The notes below the pieces were generated by a model, which did not search any database, was not told where the DNA came from, and was given only the letters and a program-made list of their open reading frames with translations. Shown here in pieces: positions 8,361 through 25,942 of a stretch of 36,452 nt of DNA (within the stretch, counting starts at the first letter, position 1; the number at the start of each line of letters is the position of its first letter). Position numbers and translations under genes: made by a program. The stretch comes from a virus (Duplodnaviria; Heunggongvirae; Uroviricota; Caudoviricetes), in the IMG/VR virus record IMGVR_UViG_2711768063_000002; one strand, 5' to 3'.

Positions 8361-8532
8361 AGTCCTGATTTGTACTCACTCATTTTCCGACTGATAATTT
8401 ACTTAGCCCAAAAGCCATCAAATCTGACAGTCTGCTTTGAGCGAGGAGCGAAAGTTGGCAGCTGTTATTAATTTCACATATATCCTATTGAAAAATGCCA
8501 ATCAAAAGTAGGTCGATTCAATCAGCTATACA

Positions 8533-8565
8533 TTCACATTCTAAAAATTTGGTAATATGTGAAAT
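8533..8565 (+). promoter_or_regulatory. Candidate sigma70 promoter for the kinase gene with extended -10 (TGgTAATAT at 8550..8558)
   Basis: TG at 8550-8551 then TAATAT at 8553-8558; possible -35 TTCACA at 8533-8538 has a short 14-bp spacer, so the call rests on the extended -10. Lies about 45 nt upstream of the ATG in an A+T-rich intergenic region. Confidence 0.35.
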
Positions 8566-8601
8566 AATGATGCACTGCAAAAGGAACTTATTAACAAAAT
8601 T

Positions 8602-9912
8602 ATGGGGGAGAAAATGGTTGGTGGCGTGTGGAATGACAAATTGGATGCGAAGGCGGCAGGCTGGGTAGCGGATGGTAACAAGAAAAGCGGTGGCCAAGGC
8701 GTGGCGTGTCCAGTGGTTCGTTCTGACATGAGAGCATTTTTAAAAGTATTGAAAAGCCAGAAAGACCCTGAGCGACGAGCTCGTATGTATCGCGAAGCAG
8801 TCGCTCTCTATACCTATGAACATCCGGGAATTCCATCTCTTATAGAAAGTAATTGCCATCGTTATGAACAAATGAATTACAAACTTTACTTAGTTACAGA
8901 AATAGTTGAAGGCCCAACATTACGTGAGTACATAGAGGAAAATGGGGCTATGTCATTTCAAGATGCGGTTGATATGATAGATCGCCTGTTGGATATAGTC
9001 GAATACTATCATTCTCGTGATGGCATTCACAGAGATATCAAACCTGATAATATTATACTCCGGTGTAATAACCCGGCTGATGCTGTATTGGTAGATTTCG
9101 GTCTCGCATGGCAACCTCAAGATGAGAACGCTCATGCTACTGATAATGGCCAAGAGCTAGGCAATCGTTTCTTAAGGCTCAATGAACTTGCGCCAGACAG
9201 TCCTAATAAACGAGATCCTCGAAGCGATATTACCTTTGTAGTAGGGATTTTATTTTACGTATTAACAGGAAAAAGCCCGTATGTTTTAGAAGAATCTGAG
9301 ACTGGGCGTCGACCTCACCAACGCGATGGAGTATCGGAAAGTATTCATGCCGCTACTAATGGTTGGGCACTTTCAATGCTTGCATTGTTTGACCGTGGTT
9401 TTTCACCGCTATTGAATAGTAGATTTCAGACGGTACAAGAGTTGAGAAAGGAGTTGAAGAGGATGAGCGAAAATAAACCTACATTGGCGGATGGTGAGAT
9501 TCTTTTAGAAATCAAAAAAAGGTTGGAAGCTCAAGGTGCTGAGATAAATAGTGTTTATATGAGTAAAATCAGGGAAGCTGTAAGCGAAATAATTTCAGTT
9601 CGTAATAACATCATAGAAGAGATCGGAGGTCATCTGTCTGGAGTTGAAACTGGATACTATAAATCTGAGCCCCGTCATTCTTGGTTAAACATAGGATTTG
9701 ATACCCCTGGTACTTCGTATCCTCGTTTCCGACCTACATTTGACTTTCAAATTATTGCTGATGAACTCATCATTACTGTCTTTTCAGAAGATCGGCAGGG
9801 TGTTGCTAAAACTATCTGGCGCACGGATGTTTCAAACTCTGACTTTGGTGATATTTTCCGCCGTAAGATCAGAGAAATATTTGTCACTGGGTTGAGCGAA
9901 ATTTTTAGTTAA
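8602..9912 (+). CDS. Hanks-type (eukaryotic-like) Ser/Thr protein kinase with an uncharacterised C-terminal domain of about 150-170 aa (436 aa); candidate phage-defence cargo
   Basis: Catalytic loop HRDIKPDNIIL, DFG motif VDFGLA, Gly-rich loop region GNKKSGGQGVA, candidate beta3 lysine in AFLKVLK, APD motif in ELAPDSP. A+T-rich, opposite strand to the tail operons, at the P2 Z/fun position. An alternative ATG at 8614 has a better SD (GGGGAG). Confidence 0.8.
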   Translation: MGEKMVGGVWNDKLDAKAAGWVADGNKKSGGQGVACPVVRSDMRAFLKVLKSQKDPERRARMYREAVALYTYEHPGIPSLIESNCHRYEQMNYKLYLVTEIVEGPTLREYIEENGAMSFQDAVDMIDRLLDIVEYYHSRDGIHRDIKPDNIILRCNNPADAVLVDFGLAWQPQDENAHATDNGQELGNRFLRLNELAPDSPNKRDPRSDITFVVGILFYVLTGKSPYVLEESETGRRPHQRDGVSESIHAATNGWALSMLALFDRGFSPLLNSRFQTVQELRKELKRMSENKPTLADGEILLEIKKRLEAQGAEINSVYMSKIREAVSEIISVRNNIIEEIGGHLSGVETGYYKSEPRHSWLNIGFDTPGTSYPRFRPTFDFQIIADELIITVFSEDRQGVAKTIWRTDVSNSDFGDIFRRKIREIFVTGLSEIFS

Positions 9913-10020
9913 TAGCTTGTGCCCATTAATATTAATTTTTATTAATGCTTTAGTTAAATATGATGCTCAGCACCTTATTAATTAACACATAGTGAAGTTT
10001 ATAGGGACAGCTCTTGGCAC

Positions 10021-10040
10021 AGGGCTGCTGTTGCAGCCCT
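10021..10040. other. GC-rich hairpin between the convergent kinase and G genes (AGGGCTGC-TGTT-GCAGCCCT)
   Basis: Perfect 8-bp inverted repeat with a 4-nt loop; no U-tract on either strand, so it is not a canonical intrinsic terminator. Confidence 0.3.
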
Positions 10041-10097
10041 AACCCCCCTAGACTTCAGTGCTATAGATACGTTAGCTCACACCAGAGCTCATACAAC

Positions 10098-10625
10098 TTA
10101 TTGCGGCATTTCCGGCCATTCAGGATTTGCAGGATCCACACGACTGACCAGAACGCTGTAGCGTTCCCATGCTTCCAGTCGGCTACGCTCCTCATCTGTT
10201 GCCATGTTCAGTCTGACCGCGCGCTCCAGCGGCAAAATCACGGATTCAGCATCTGCAAGAAGTCTGGCTTTCCGGTTTTCTGCCTGCTGCTGCAATTCCT
10301 CTGCCGTATAAATGCGTTTAATCACTTTGCCGTCCTTAAACATCCAGTTCCCTGAAATGTTCGCCCGCCGGTTAGCAGTAATATCCGCCACTTCAACAAC
10401 ACTTAATCCATCCGGTCTGATAGCTGTCGCATCCTTTTCCACATAGCGGATGATATTATCTTTGTCGTACGCTATTTTTAGCGTGTCATCAGCAAAATAC
10501 TTTTGTTCTTCGTACCAGTTCTTACCATCTTCTGAAAAAAACCAGACAACATCAAAGTCTTTTGTCAATTGATATTGTTCAACCGTTTTTGGATTACCTG
10601 CCGTTATATTTATCAAATGCTGCAT
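10098..10625 (-). CDS. G: Tail fibre assembly protein G (175 aa)
   Basis: 175-aa ORF immediately downstream of H; same length and position as P2 gpG; ATG verified at 10623-10625. Confidence 0.85.
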
Positions 10626-10628
10626 AAA

Positions 10629-12947
10629 TTATACCTGCGCCACGTTATACCAAGTCCCGTTAATGTATTTCTGCACCGGTCTGTAATATACGCCACCAAT
10701 GTTATCGGCAGAGTTTGAGCCGGTATCCTGAACAATAATGCCGGAATATACACACCCGGACGGTGCCTGATGTGTCCATGTCATGCCATTGTTCGCAGGT
10801 TTGTATGTGGCAGCACCACCAAGCCGGATATCCCGGACATAGCGTGAATCAAAATTACTATAGTTAGATGGTGATACCTGCCCGTTAACAGCAAAAGTGA
10901 TGCTGTTATCTGTATTTCTCTGACTGTAAAAATGCCAGCCTGCATCATCACCTAATTCAGCCACCACAGGACGACTTGAGTTTCCCCACAAATTGAATGC
11001 GGCTTCCTTCGTGGATGTATTGCTGCTGCTGACCGTGAACTTTTTCCCGCTACCGGCACGTACTTTGGTACTTGAGACAATATCACCAGTAACACTCAGG
11101 CCATGCCCCATTGATACAGCACCCGTGGCATCATTTATAATCAGTGGTCTTAAATTATTATAAGTACCTAATCTGTCACCTGATTTAGTCAACATAAAAT
11201 AAGTGCTGCTGCCATCATTCCTGATAAAGAATCCATAATTGCCATAAGCAATGCGCAGACCATTAGCACTGAGTGATGTAATCTCACCTCTTGAACGGAG
11301 ACCATAAGCGGAGCTGAGTGATAATTCTTCCTGAGCATCAGTATTACCAGTCGCCCAGCGAACTACCCCGCCCTGTACTGTTTCATGCCAGATAGTGTCT
11401 CCTTCTCCACCACGAAACTTTCTGAGATATTTTTTGCCGCCTCTGGTGCCTGAACATAAGGCCGTAGACATATAGGCATTCTGGCTTCCGCCATCCTGAT
11501 TAATCGTTCCGGTCATTGAGTCGCCCTGACGATTCCAGTCACGACGCCAGCCGGGGGAGTAGCCGTCCCCATGATTAATGTAAGTGAATTGCGCGCTGGT
11601 TGTACCGCCACCACTTGATGTTGTCGGCGTGGTCACTCGGATAGTGATTGCAGATTTAGTTCCCATGACCTCGACGACACAACCAGCCAGGTGGATATCA
11701 CCACATCCGGTATCCGTAATGATTTTGTTATTTGCATATGACCAGGAGCCTTTGCACATCCAGTACGGATGATTAAATGCACCACGGGAATCCAGCCATT
11801 CAATAAACTGAGCGGTTGTCCAGTTTCCGGCTTCAGTGCTCAAAGCGCCGCTATAAGCACGACAGGCACCGATATTTTTCGTGAAGGTATCCTTTCCCGG
11901 AATATCCGCACCGTTCTGATCTTTCTGAAGACGTTTTTCAGCATTGTCATAGGCAGACTTCACTGCTTTTGGCGTTGCCGCGAGGGTTTCAGAATCACTG
12001 TTGGTGGCGCTACTGAGCTGGACAAGACCTTTTCGCGCCGTGGTGGCATCCTGTGCAGTGTATTTCCCGTTAGCAAGGTCATACGCTGTCTTAACCGCCT
12101 TTGGTGTTGCCGCAAGCGTTTCAGAATCGCTGTTGGTGACGCTACTGAGCTGGACAAGACCTTTTCGCGCTGTGGTGGCGTCCTGTGCAGTGTATTTCCC
12201 GTTAGCAAGGTCATACGCGGCCTTTACCGCTTTTGGTGTTGCGGCGAGCGTTTCAGACGTGCTGTTGGTGGCACTACTGAGCTGGACAAGACCTTTTCGC
12301 GCTGTGGTGGCATCCTGCGCAGTATATTTCCTGTTAGCAAGGTCATACGCGGCCTTTACCGCTTTCGGCGTTGCGGCCAGTGTTTCAGACGTGCTGTTGG
12401 TCGCACTGCTTAACTGAGTAAAACCTTTGGCGGTCAGCGAGGCGTCCGGGTGACGTCGTGACTGTTCGTGCTCTGCAATTTTGTCATCAACGTAATCCTG
12501 TGTCGCCATCACCGTTGTGGTGTCAATGGTCAGCTCCACCGAGGCCACACTGCTGACGATGATGACCATGCGACAGGTCTGCGAACGCCCTGAGCCTTCG
12601 GCAAGAGCTGGCTTATAACTTTCGGCCATGTTCGCCACGGCAATTAGCGTTCCCGCATCATCGTACAGGCCAAGTTCACGCATCCAGAAACCGCCCACCT
12701 CCGGCGGAATAACCAGCTCTGCGATAATATAATTACTGTTTCGTTTGTCCTGGCTGATTTTGTTCAGCGCATGTCGCCAGACTTCGTGGATAAGCCCGGT
12801 CTGTCCGGCATCCGGGACAGGCAATTTACCACCGCCATCCCCGACGGCCATCGTGGTAATGTTGACCTTCCGCCCTCCCGGTGCGGTTGCCGCTGCCAGC
12901 TTTGCTGCACCGGCAGTGGTGATAACGGTTTTGAATTTTGTGCTCAT
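10629..12947 (-). CDS. H: Tail fibre protein H (772 aa) with internal tandem repeats
   Basis: N-terminus MSTKFKTVITTAGAAKLAAATAPGGRKVNITTMAVGDGGGKLP as in P2-like gpH; four copies of an approximately 40-aa repeat (KGLVQLSSATNSTSETLAATPKAVKAAYDLANGKYTAQDATTAR). Confidence 0.9.
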   Translation of the reverse strand: MSTKFKTVITTAGAAKLAAATAPGGRKVNITTMAVGDGGGKLPVPDAGQTGLIHEVWRHALNKISQDKRNSNYIIAELVIPPEVGGFWMRELGLYDDAGTLIAVANMAESYKPALAEGSGRSQTCRMVIIVSSVASVELTIDTTTVMATQDYVDDKIAEHEQSRRHPDASLTAKGFTQLSSATNSTSETLAATPKAVKAAYDLANRKYTAQDATTARKGLVQLSSATNSTSETLAATPKAVKAAYDLANGKYTAQDATTARKGLVQLSSVTNSDSETLAATPKAVKTAYDLANGKYTAQDATTARKGLVQLSSATNSDSETLAATPKAVKSAYDNAEKRLQKDQNGADIPGKDTFTKNIGACRAYSGALSTEAGNWTTAQFIEWLDSRGAFNHPYWMCKGSWSYANNKIITDTGCGDIHLAGCVVEVMGTKSAITIRVTTPTTSSGGGTTSAQFTYINHGDGYSPGWRRDWNRQGDSMTGTINQDGGSQNAYMSTALCSGTRGGKKYLRKFRGGEGDTIWHETVQGGVVRWATGNTDAQEELSLSSAYGLRSRGEITSLSANGLRIAYGNYGFFIRNDGSSTYFMLTKSGDRLGTYNNLRPLIINDATGAVSMGHGLSVTGDIVSSTKVRAGSGKKFTVSSSNTSTKEAAFNLWGNSSRPVVAELGDDAGWHFYSQRNTDNSITFAVNGQVSPSNYSNFDSRYVRDIRLGGAATYKPANNGMTWTHQAPSGCVYSGIIVQDTGSNSADNIGGVYYRPVQKYINGTWYNVAQV
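11942..12431. repeat. Four tandem copies of an approximately 120-bp repeat inside the tail fibre gene H
   Basis: Near-identical DNA blocks (for example GCTACTGAGCTGGACAAGACCTTTTCGCGC recurs four times), encoding the repeated tail-fibre peptide. Confidence 0.8.
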
Positions 12948-14393: not shown

Positions 14394-14741
14394 TCAACTC
14401 ACAGGGATGGTTAACGAAAGTGGCTGGCCGGTGTCGTTGTGCTGGCCGGTTAACGTGACCGTCATTCGCCCGTCAAAACTGCGCGCCGTGGTGACGGATG
14501 ACAGGGTGACGCGGGGTTCCCATTTCAGCACTGCCATGTAACAGGCGACTTTAATCTGCAACTCAAGCGCCGGGGTCTGCGGCTGGTCAATCATTGACGC
14601 CAGCAACGAGCCGTAATCACGACGCATCACCCGTGAGCCGACCGGTGTGCGCAGGATATCGCCGATACTCTGGCTGATATGCTCAAGGTCAGTGACAGTC
14701 AGGCCATCACTGCGATTCATTCCGAGATAACGCGCTGTCAT
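14394..14741 (-). CDS. W: Baseplate protein W (115 aa)
   Basis: 115-aa ORF at the P2 gpW position with the same length; ATGA overlap with the V stop. Confidence 0.85.
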   Translation of the reverse strand: MTARYLGMNRSDGLTVTDLEHISQSIGDILRTPVGSRVMRRDYGSLLASMIDQPQTPALELQIKVACYMAVLKWEPRVTLSSVTTARSFDGRMTVTLTGQHNDTGQPLSLTIPVS

Positions 14742-15373
14742 AGAGGTCCCCCTGTTGTGCCGCCACTGTCGCCGGGGTGTTTATGGGTATGCAGTACCTT
14801 ACCGTTTGATGAGAGTTCACCGCCGGTGTGTTCAATGTTGCCGCGCATCGTCCCGCCCTTCTGCACTTCCAGCGTGCCGGTAATCAGCCTGTTGGTGCAG
14901 ACCACCTCCGGTGTGTCCAGGGTGACGCGGGTTGATGCTTTCACCATGACCACCGGCACCGTGGCAGTAACAGAATCAGAAGCCGTCACGCTGGCCGTTT
15001 TAATTCCGCTTACCGTAAGTGCACTGGTTTCGGGTTCATACTCAATCACCGCCCCGTCAGGGAAACGGATATGCAGGGCATCCGCCGACGCAGACGGCGC
15101 GGGGTTATCGCCGGAATAAATCCCCGGCAGAACGAACGCCGTGTCGAGTTCACCGCCCACGGCCAGAATCAGCACCTGTTCCCCCACGGAAGGTGCCCAC
15201 CATGTGCGCGAACGTCCGGCGCGATGGGTCAGCCACTGAAGCCAGTCGGTGCACATGCCGCCGGTCTGCACACGGCAGCGACCGGCGTTAAGGTTGGTTT
15301 CAACGATAATGCCGGTGCGGATCATGTTGCGCAGTGCGCGCGCGAGTTCCTGAATATTTGCGAGAGTGTTCAT
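14738..15373 (-). CDS. V: Baseplate spike protein V (211 aa)
   Basis: The track ORF starts at a TTG; trimmed to ATG at 15371-15373, giving MNTLANIQELARALRNMIRTG, the gpV N-terminus. Confidence 0.85.
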   Translation of the reverse strand: MNTLANIQELARALRNMIRTGIIVETNLNAGRCRVQTGGMCTDWLQWLTHRAGRSRTWWAPSVGEQVLILAVGGELDTAFVLPGIYSGDNPAPSASADALHIRFPDGAVIEYEPETSALTVSGIKTASVTASDSVTATVPVVMVKASTRVTLDTPEVVCTNRLITGTLEVQKGGTMRGNIEHTGGELSSNGKVLHTHKHPGDSGGTTGGPL

Positions 15374-15456
15374 GCATGTGAGATTGCACAATATATAAAA
15401 GTTATGCTATCTGGATTCATTTGTAGAACCACCAGACAACATTCAAGGAGAGCGTA

Positions 15457-16242
15457 ATGGTCAGCTATAATGTGACTAATGTGTGGGAGCTAATCGTTTT
15501 GTATCTTTTGGTCTTTGCAGTATTAGCATTTTTTAGCTTTGGTAAAAGTAACCTTATGAGGCTTATTGCACATTATTTCAAATTTGGATATTCAGACAAA
15601 AAATTAAAAAGACTGGACCGCGAGTGGCGCGACATTCAACTATTTAAAACACTTAACGGAATCAATGTATCAGGCATCGAAGATGTGAGAATGATACAGC
15701 AGGGGCTGATTGATGGAAAACTAAAAACATCGGATTTTTTCCTTACTCGCTTCTGGGGAGACATAACAGAACCGCTATGCATCACAAAAACAATGAGTGC
15801 AGTCCTGGCCGGAATTCTTTATATTATCTTCGCATGTTACATACACAATGAACAATCCGCTATAGTAAGGGATGCCATAGGTATACCATATAAAAACATG
15901 ATGTACTATGTTTATAGTGACAAAGTTCTTTTATCCTTCAAAAATAAAACAGTTGAATTTAATAAAACTTATAGCCTTGCCGATTGCAAGAGTCTGCAAA
16001 ACGTATTTATAAAAGACACACTTCCTGAGATCGCCTGCAATAAGCTCTTACAGCTAAACGAGGAGGACTCCGAATGGTTAAGTCAGGAGATTAAAGATAA
16101 TAACAGCCACAGAAAAACATTATTAATAATATCCCTAACCTATTTCATTTCAGGTCTGCTTATATTCCTGTCATATGCAAAATTCCTTTACGCCAATAAG
16201 AAGGTTTTAGAATACAAAGCATCAAATAAAAACCACTCATAA
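15457..16242 (+). CDS. Predicted multi-pass membrane protein of unknown function (261 aa); cargo at the S/V (P2 orf30) position
   Basis: Strong SD AAGGAG 6 nt before the ATG; three hydrophobic helices (LIVLYLLVFAVLAFFSF, MSAVLAGILYIIFACYI, LLIISLTYFISGLLIFLSY); very A+T-rich with Lys/Asn/Ile-rich codons; opposite strand to flanking tail genes. Confidence 0.75.
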   Translation: MVSYNVTNVWELIVLYLLVFAVLAFFSFGKSNLMRLIAHYFKFGYSDKKLKRLDREWRDIQLFKTLNGINVSGIEDVRMIQQGLIDGKLKTSDFFLTRFWGDITEPLCITKTMSAVLAGILYIIFACYIHNEQSAIVRDAIGIPYKNMMYYVYSDKVLLSFKNKTVEFNKTYSLADCKSLQNVFIKDTLPEIACNKLLQLNEEDSEWLSQEIKDNNSHRKTLLIISLTYFISGLLIFLSYAKFLYANKKVLEYKASNKNHS

Positions 16243-16248
16243 ACCTCT

Positions 16249-16283
16249 AAACATTGAGCGACCAGCACGGCCGCTCAATGTTT
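16249..16283. terminator. Hairpin between the convergent membrane-protein gene and S (12-bp stem AAACATTGAGCG / CGCTCAATGTTT, 11-nt loop)
   Basis: Perfect 12-bp inverted repeat starting 7 nt after the plus-strand stop; weak U-tracts on both strands, so possibly a bidirectional terminator. Confidence 0.45.
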
Positions 16284-16313
16284 AATTGCGCATCAGCCTC
16301 TGCCTGGATAAAA

Positions 16314-16766
16314 CTAACGCTCAAGGTGAGCCAGGATAATCTCTTCAATCATCTGCACATCCTCACCGGTAAAGCCGAGCAGAGGACGCGCCGGATAATC
16401 AATTTTCTTACCGTCTTTCCGGGTTTCTTCCGACAGACCGAACTGATGCACACTGGCGATTTTCGGCGACTTCCCGCCGTAAAATTCCATTGATGCCTGT
16501 TCCGGGCTGGCGCGGATATGCAAAAAACGACTGGTGATAAGTTTCGCAAACATTTTTCGCTTAACACGACCGGTCTTTTTTCTGGCGCTCTGCTGCTGGC
16601 GTGGCGCGTAGGGTGTGCCGTCCGGGGCTTTCTGTGCCATCACCCGACGCTGCTGACTCTGCCGCAGACGCTTCGCCAGCTCTGCACTCAGCCGCCGACG
16701 CCCTGACGGTGACAGCGACTCAATCAGTCCGGTCAGCCGGTCTTCAAAACGCTTAAACTCATTCAT
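16314..16766 (-). CDS. S: Tail completion protein S (150 aa)
   Basis: 150-aa ORF MNEFKRFEDRLTGLIESLSPSGRRRLSAELAKRLRQSQQRR; same length and position as P2 gpS. Confidence 0.9.
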   Translation of the reverse strand: MNEFKRFEDRLTGLIESLSPSGRRRLSAELAKRLRQSQQRRVMAQKAPDGTPYAPRQQQSARKKTGRVKRKMFAKLITSRFLHIRASPEQASMEFYGGKSPKIASVHQFGLSEETRKDGKKIDYPARPLLGFTGEDVQMIEEIILAHLER

Positions 16767-25655: not shown

Positions 25656-25674
25656 GTGCTTTCCCCGCCTCGCC
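25656..25674. other. cos site (19-nt cohesive-end sequence, present here as GTGCTTTCCCCGCCTCGCC)
   Basis: Reverse complement GGCGAGGCGGGGAAAGCAC matches the P2 cohesive end as I recall it; located just beyond Q, as in P2. Confidence 0.6.
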
Positions 25675-25770
25675 CGCCCGCTTCATGGGTCGGTTTTGAT
25701 GCAAATGTATAAGCCAGGCGAAAGCACGTCAGTTTTGAGCTCATTTGTATGAAAGGCCAAATAATAGCAA

Positions 25771-25800
25771 ATGCAATTTGATGCAATTTGATGCAATAAT
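25771..25800. repeat. Three tandem 10-bp repeats (ATGCAATTTG, ATGCAATTTG, ATGCAATAAT) upstream of the FRG-domain gene
   Basis: Two perfect and one imperfect direct repeat on a one-helical-turn register, about 140 bp upstream of the 25943 start. Confidence 0.5.
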
Positions 25801-25942
25801 GTACGCAAAACTACCTTCCCACAGAGTCAAACATAGACTGACAGTTTTCTCTGGTAGTGCTGAATCAGATCTGGCAATCTACATCGCCCTTACGACAACA
25901 TTAAGACAATCAATGTCATTTCTTAAGTAAAAAGGAGTTAGA

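Follow-up and report, generated by a model that had tools for sequence, protein, structure and literature searches.

The orf30 gene of P2-like phages encodes a predicted three-pass inner-membrane protein at a late operon boundary, with a possible role in superinfection exclusion

The closest described counterparts of the gene considered here are accessory genes of phage P2. The P2 genes old, tin and fun(Z) are, like orf30, nonessential, run on the reverse strand relative to the late genes and are placed at operon or genome-end boundaries; fun is located between the V-operon terminator and the activator site of pF, and orf30 between the O-operon terminator and the activator site of pV. Old, Tin and Fun have been demonstrated to exclude other phages, but they are unrelated to Orf30 as proteins. 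The old/tin and Z/fun slots are variable and rich in defence genes (PMC9122126, PMC9519451). The position of orf30 has itself been counted among the three regions in which P2-like phages acquired genes horizontally (PMC3091744), and different genes occupy it in other members of this group (PMC6823313); recent hotspot surveys (PMC13586616, PMC9122126, PMC9519451) centre on old/tin and Z/fun and leave the S-V junction undiscussed.

The sieA gene of phage P22 offers another comparison. Like orf30, it is a reverse-strand prophage gene at the end of a virion operon, and it encodes an inner-membrane protein, as is predicted for orf30. The sequence types of SieA are less than 30% identical at one conserved locus, and the relatives of Orf30 (18–33% identity) are similarly diverged. 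However, SieA comprises 164 aa, whereas Orf30 comprises 261 aa with large soluble domains predicted on both sides of the membrane; furthermore, SieA excludes its own phage type, which Orf30 probably does not do in the case of P2-like phages. Homology between the two proteins was rejected, as the comparison of P22 SieA with the Orf30 family profile by hhalign returned a probability of 0.3%.

The window, that is, the whole stretch of 36,452 nucleotides analysed here (IMG/VR record IMGVR_UViG_2711768063_000002), holds a complete P2-like prophage (approximately 1507–35977), which is collinear with P2 and 96.6–97.4% identical to it save for the cargo regions and the tail-fibre genes. In its Z/fun slot (8457–10055), P2 fun(Z) is replaced by the gene of a 436-aa Ser/Thr kinase (8602–9912, + strand, the reverse strand relative to the late genes; GC about 0.40), which matches PADLOC PD-T4-6 with E = 2e-174. 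The old/tin slot (25674–29793) contains a 4-kb island with a GC of 0.35 in place of P2 old and tin. The ORF at 25943–27298 (+) of this island encodes a 451-aa protein with an FRG domain that matches the PADLOC candidate PDC-S15 (E = 8e-98), and its ORFs at 27715–28311 (-), 28394–29149 (-) and 29166–29612 (+) had no Pfam or PADLOC match. In the tail-fibre region (10055–12222, comprising G and the C-terminal part of H), identity to P2 is 73–88% and patchy, which implies a receptor-binding specificity differing from that of P2.

The S-V interval and the identity of its gene

The third cargo region of the window lies between the late genes S and V and comprises the following features:

14738..15373, - strand: gpV baseplate spike gene (Pfam Phage_base_V, Phage_spike and Apex; P2 annotation)
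15374..16313, strand not applicable: low-GC cargo island, the entire S-V interval (GC about 0.35–0.39 in the composition profile)
15415..15442, - strand: putative Ogr-type activator binding site belonging to the late promoter pV (carried over from the P2 annotation)
15445..15450, + strand: Shine-Dalgarno sequence AAGGAG (read directly from the sequence; spacing to the orf30 ATG of 6 nt)
15457..16242, + strand: orf30 allele, coding sequence of a predicted three-pass membrane protein (ORF list; P2 Orf30; PHROG 2407)
16248..16284, strand not applicable: hairpin, probable bidirectional terminator between the convergent orf30 and S (fold; P2 homologue annotated)
16314..16766, - strand: gpS tail completion gene, the last of the O operon (Pfam Phage_tail_S, 4.9e-44; P2 annotation)

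Judged by sequence comparison, the ORF at 15457–16242 is, with near certainty, an allele of P2 orf30. The 941-nt S-V interval matches 21 deposited phage genomes, among them the P2 reference AF063097, with 93.8% DNA identity over the full interval and a feature annotated as “orf30, nonessential.” At the protein level, BLASTP aligned the window protein with P2 Orf30 (AAD03281.1, [quoted passage not shown]) at 87% identity, without gaps, over 261/261 aa (E = 1e-172); the 35 substitutions are concentrated in the three transmembrane (TM) helices. Peduovirus P2 OU784750 encodes exactly this protein (100% identity), and PHROG 2407, a family of unknown function, is matched from end to end (1–261 of 261, E = 4e-140). 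The two alleles also agree in slot, strand, length, terminator hairpin and pV site. The original prediction had described P2 orf30 as a small ORF unrelated to the gene in the window; this has to be corrected, since both are the same gene, with 261 aa each, in the same position and on the same strand. The paper on phage R18C terms P2 ORF30 “short, 261-bp-long” (PMC6823313). The true size of the gene is 786 bp, corresponding to 261 aa, so that the published figure is a slip of units (aa, not bp), and this slip may be the source of the notion of a small ORF. In the literature searched (the Christie and Calendar review of P2 aside), orf30 is given no function. As an object, the gene is thus already known; what is added here is its wider family and the link to DUF6216, the conserved synteny, a model of topology and structure, the pattern of selection and counts of slot occupancy.

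The gene starts with ATG, and its product of 261 aa has a computed mass of 30.3 kDa and a pI of 9.0. Several features that had been read from the sequence at first sight were confirmed, namely a 261-aa ORF, a strong Shine-Dalgarno sequence (AAGGAG, 6 nt before the ATG) and a very low GC content: the GC of orf30 is 0.354 and its GC3 is 0.38, versus 0.55–0.60 in the flanking 400-nt windows (about 0.58). The predicted hairpin downstream of the gene is also present, with a measured stem of 13 bp plus two inner pairs where 12 bp had been claimed. Its folding energy is -22 kcal/mol on the + strand (z = -5.6; 0 of 200 shuffled sequences were equally stable) and -31 kcal/mol for the 83-nt hairpin region on the - strand. 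The P2 counterpart is annotated as “putative rho-independent terminator for O operon,” and the hairpin is probably a bidirectional terminator.

According to the P2 annotation, the O-operon terminator lies on one side of orf30 and the V-operon promoter on the other. Because this terminator and the pV site flank it, the gene stands at the boundary of two late operons and interrupts neither. The earlier claim that the gene lies on the opposite strand within the tail/baseplate late operon was therefore right as to the strand (gpV and gpS are both on the - strand) but not as to an interrupted operon. On the V side, gpV has 211 aa and its start ATG at 15373 matches that of P2. The 83-nt spacer between V and orf30 differs from P2 by one mismatch and contains the annotated activator site of pV, which was transferred through the 93.8%-identical alignment (P2 record 10239–10266, corresponding to L001 2536–2563). 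Only 15 nt separate this site from the start codon of orf30, so the promoter of orf30 must overlap pV. Transcription of orf30 as a divergent twin of pV, in the manner of pP/pO, was rejected, as the symmetric start would fall about 27 nt inside the ORF. A sigma-70 consensus scan upstream of orf30 and of three relatives found nothing above the shuffled expectation, and a TATAAA-like element was seen by eye at 15394–15399.

Occupancy of the slot and prevalence of orf30

The contents of the slot were compared in 80 IMG/VR contigs of P2-like phages with a gpS at least 98.7% identical to that of the window. The slot is empty in 50 of them, where S is directly followed by V across a GC-rich spacer of 68 bp; 23 carry orf30, and the remaining seven carry unrelated genes. 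Hence, the variable slot that had been proposed is well documented by these counts, and orf30 is missing from about 62% of otherwise near-identical P2-like phages. One of the alternative cargos encodes a 357-aa protein with C-terminal TM helices (5/80; L021, L027, L038, L041 and L074; insert of 1272 bp), and the other a soluble protein of 268–278 aa (2/80; L028 and L037; insert of 1044 bp). Both cargos have a GC of about 0.34; no meaningful Pfam or PADLOC match was found for either, and hhalign ruled out the 357-aa protein as a homologue of Orf30. Every cargo of the slot in this sample is on the reverse strand and has a GC of 0.33–0.36.

The whole stretch between S and V, pV promoter and leader included, is different in phages with orf30 and in those with an empty slot (window 15374–15456 compared with loci such as L007 4448–4515). 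The leader of the empty slot, GGCATCC..CCGTT, is common to distant P2-like phages, and the P2 type is short and AT-rich. This difference by slot type suggests that the orf30 cassette brings its own version of pV.

Among the complete genomes of E. coli, 1576 carry the P2-type S gene, in 1803 places altogether. The orf30 gene occurs in 482 places in 464 of 5426 genomes (about 9%) from many sources, and it accompanies about 27% of the P2-type S genes; none of its places is on a plasmid. Two copies of orf30 are present in 18 genomes, compared with about 16 expected by chance, and this chance-level frequency argues against the exclusion of P2-like phages themselves by Orf30. The classical behaviour of P2 vir1 is consistent with this, and Orf30 probably does not exclude P2-like phages. 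The gene shows several traits of morons and of lysogenic conversion genes, being nonessential, variably present and deviant in GC, with a probable terminator of its own. By its architecture, orf30 is an ordinary moron, that is, horizontally exchangeable accessory cargo.

The wider family and the predicted protein

A word-indexed protein search returned only four clusters, all at least 81% identical to Orf30; searches of this kind recovered few distant relatives even with a profile. When 1.84 billion cluster representatives were searched exhaustively with an HMMER profile, 42 proteins were obtained, about 25 of them full-length (249–271 aa) and collinear. In an alignment of 24 sequences, the relatives, which come from Yersinia, Enterobacter, Leclercia and Sodalis, are 18–33% identical to the window protein and retain the plan of three TM helices and a pair of cysteines. 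Residues G68, G87, C194 and I212 are invariant, and at least 90% of the sequences share G29, Q61, D76, C177, N247 and K254. Collinear matches to Pfam DUF6216 (PF19723) were found in 10 of the 24 family members. The member from a prophage of Sodalis sp. RH24 (P0023), which occupies the V-S slot, exceeds the gathering threshold (28.9 versus 27.3 bits, positions 10–265 of 270), and the other nine are below it. The window protein itself had no Pfam match at E <= 1, DUF6216 included, and its link to DUF6216 is transitive, through its relatives. DUF6216 is a family of unknown function that comes with no functional information and is mentioned in one unrelated paper.

The position of the family is conserved together with its architecture. 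Among nine relatives whose contigs were looked up, seven are in the V-S slot on the opposite strand; one of the other two is beside a gpR remnant, and the last is on a short contig with no visible phage genes. All 12 loci of relatives in IMG/VR are in the V-S slot. Four genome loci were also inspected, one each from Yersinia frederiksenii and Leclercia and two from Enterobacter. In Yersinia and at one Enterobacter locus the gene is cleanly between V and S; at the second Enterobacter locus, a rearranged MAG contig, the Orf30-family gene is flanked on either side by fragments of V. The GC of the family genes is 0.30–0.37 irrespective of their flanks (0.46–0.61). A scan of the genome contigs with the window protein and a scan of the viral contigs with the P4-associated member described below gave no match.

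That member, from Leclercia adecarboxylata (L101 1385–4750), is located outside the P2 slot, in the remnant of a P4-like satellite. It is contained in an AT-rich island of 1.6 kb between a C-terminal fragment of a P4-type primase with crr-like TGTTCACC iterons and the host junction, and it is the last gene before the host DNA. The same remnant encodes Psu, with an HNH gene in the AT-rich region on the psu side. Hence, the family also has a member outside P2-like phages. In P4-like satellites, the site between the primase/crr region and the host junction has been reported to be a minor hotspot for defence genes (PMC13586616).

Some further observations concern these loci. Two Orf30-family genes stand in tandem beside gpV in a truncated P2-like element (L097 5001–5771 and 5900–6658), which suggests stacking or duplication of diverged paralogues. 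In another locus (L096 5877–7214, - strand, GCA_039540155.1), a 445-aa DUF4062 protein shares the slot with an Orf30-family gene. In the phages with distant relatives of Orf30 (L104–L115, L085–L098), gpS is only 43–56% identical to that of the window, and the other neighbours are closer to it (gpR 69–80%, gpV 60–85% and gpW 65–80%; R and W in L104–L115). Judging from these comparisons, the S gene itself looks like a mosaic or rapidly evolving stretch that borders the slot.

The three TM helices of the original prediction were recovered by hydropathy and appeared as long helices in the structural model. Kyte-Doolittle analysis (19-aa windows, threshold at least 1.6) delimited hydrophobic segments at aa 4–33, 106–131 and 220–242. 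AlphaFold2 (AF2) gave an unusable model with only five close homologues (pLDDT 49.8) and, with the 24-sequence alignment, a model with pLDDT 83 and pTM 0.73. The predicted parts of the protein are as follows:

15484..15540, + strand: TM1, aa 10–28, predicted N-out (hydropathy; AF2 helix 4–40; charge balance)
15541..15786, + strand: predicted cytoplasmic helical domain, aa 29–110 (alignment A3; AF2; charge +5.5)
15787..15849, + strand: TM2, aa 111–131 (hydropathy; AF2)
15850..16113, + strand: predicted periplasmic alpha/beta domain, aa 132–219 (AF2; cysteine pair; charge -0.4)
15985–15987, + strand: Cys177, present in at least 90% of family members
16036–16038, + strand: Cys194, invariant in the family
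16114..16182, + strand: TM3, aa 220–242, followed by a basic cytoplasmic tail, aa 243–261 (hydropathy; AF2; charge)

In the model, helix 4–40 comprises TM1 and an extension, helix 109–134 corresponds to TM2, and helix 202–260 comprises TM3 and the tail. Helices of the predicted cytoplasmic domain were placed at 48–67, 74–86 and 91–94 with pLDDT values of 79–94, and the loop between TM2 and TM3 was modelled with four strands (141–173) and two helices. In the family, the N-terminus has a mean net charge of -0.8, the TM1-TM2 loop one of +5.5, the TM2-TM3 loop one of -0.4 and the C-terminal tail one of +2.0; the N-out/C-in topology was assigned from this pattern of loop charges and the positive-inside rule. 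According to these predictions, Orf30 very probably crosses the inner membrane three times and has parts exposed on either face of it. A basic cytoplasmic helical domain of about 80 aa and a periplasmic alpha/beta domain of about 90 aa are well supported by the modelling. The former holds the best conserved motif of the family (Q61, G68, D76 and G87). The TM2-TM3 loop contains on average 2.0 cysteines per sequence, spaced 15–19 residues apart, and a predicted disulfide between Cys177 and Cys194 probably staples the periplasmic domain.

Comparison of the predicted fold with BFVD and PDB structures gave no significant match; the best, non-significant resemblances are to claudin/TARP-like and SURF1-like folds, which also combine TM helices with an extracytoplasmic beta-sheet. 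In PADLOC-DB v2, the window protein had 0 hits at E <= 10, and only single hits at noise level were obtained among the 24 relatives. NCBIfam and PDB sequence searches produced no meaningful match, and none of the known superinfection exclusion families in Pfam and PHROG was matched. A homology search had also been proposed at the outset, with similarity to a structural tail component as the result that would speak against a membrane cargo protein. No structural tail or baseplate family in Pfam or PHROG was matched. The candidate role of Orf30 as a part of the virion was rejected on this ground, together with the opposite strand of the gene and its absence from most close relatives.

Possible functions of Orf30

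By analogy with the systems introduced above, we tentatively propose that Orf30 may provide envelope-level superinfection exclusion of heterologous phages to the benefit of the lysogen, which we regard as quite possible, though short of probable. A role in defence is suggested by context: the likeness to old, tin and fun, the defence genes elsewhere in the window and the family member in an accessory locus of a P4-like element. Like the P2 reverse-strand cargo old, tin and fun, Orf30 would serve the lysogen and not the virion. It would act at the inner membrane or in the periplasm, where it would block genome delivery by heterologous incoming phages, in a mode resembling those of P22 SieA, T4 Imm and HK97 gp15, to none of which it is homologous. 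Contact with a component of the phage or of the host membrane would be made by the fast-evolving TM helices and the periplasmic domain, whose constant counterpart would be the conserved cytoplasmic domain.

With more reserve still, it is conceivable that the Orf30/DUF6216-like proteins form an unrecognised inner-membrane anti-phage family specific to the P2/P4 mobilome, and that the S-V junction is an overlooked defence hotspot whose cargo can move to P4-like satellites. Phage P2 is a classical model in which few genes are still unexplained; orf30 is one of these, and about 9% of complete E. coli genomes carry it. If a role in exclusion or defence holds true, a new membrane-protein family and a further hotspot, beyond old/tin and Z/fun, would be added to the P2/P4 repertoire; if there is no phage phenotype, orf30 will remain an ordinary accessory gene. 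The question can be tested directly with the help of the family alignment, the topology model and the naturally occurring relatives with an empty slot.

The contextual evidence for exclusion equally supports an abortive infection mechanism, in which Orf30 would sense a cue of infection and break down the integrity of the membrane or the proton-motive force, so that the cell dies or is arrested. Many defence effectors are small multi-TM proteins, TM effectors are found in P4/P2 hotspots (PMC9122126), and the conserved cytoplasmic domain could be the sensor. However, orf30 is alone in its slot, with no partner gene for a sensor or an antitoxin, it has no PADLOC hit, and a large structured periplasmic domain with a cysteine pair is unexpected for a simple pore-forming effector; we consider this mechanism unlikely. 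Similarly improbable, in our view, is a form of lysogenic conversion unrelated to phages, with an envelope protein that aids host fitness through tolerance of bacteriocins or membrane-active toxins, through stress responses or through host factors. The moron-like architecture and low GC of orf30, the predicted exposure of the protein to the periplasm and the occurrence of the gene in E. coli of many sources (464 of 5426 complete genomes) agree with such a role. The immunity proteins for pore-forming colicins are among the three-TM inner-membrane proteins. Nevertheless, the family is found almost exclusively in P2-like phages, apart from one P4-like element, and neither on plasmids nor beside bacteriocin genes, and it has no similarity to immunity families; the sole hit, to Colicin-K immunity in 1 of 24 members, is at noise level (E = 0.11).

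A small chance is also given to an auxiliary role centred on the phage itself, dispensable in the laboratory, for example in the timing of lysis, in membrane events during entry or exit of its own DNA, or in the interplay of helper and satellite. The place beside V has been kept while identity fell to 60–85% for V, 43–56% for S and 18–33% for Orf30, a family member is present in the P4-like remnant, and transcription from a start 15 nt from the activator site must overlap the late promoter. On the other hand, orf30 is absent from about 62% of near-identical phages and replaceable by unrelated genes; moreover, it is annotated as nonessential in P2 and lies on the strand opposite to all late genes, and a promoter symmetric to pV would start inside it. 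The exclusion of heterologous phages remains our preferred reading, and a decaying acquired ORF with no current role appears very improbable. The whole-gene dN/dS of orf30 between alleles, 0.44–0.56, is indeed high for a phage gene (0.13 for V and at most 0.05 for S in the same comparisons), and no promoter was found by the consensus scan. Against decay, all 22 complete copies in the IMG/VR sample have an intact frame of exactly 261 aa, full-length collinear relatives at 18–33% identity keep the architecture and the invariant residues, and AF2 reaches its pLDDT of 83 with their alignment. Furthermore, the soluble domains appear to be under purifying selection, with dN/dS values of 0.25–0.33 there and about 0.9–1.0 in the TM helices (small counts per region). 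This pattern of substitutions is in keeping with a functional gene whose soluble domains are conserved and whose membrane helices change rapidly.
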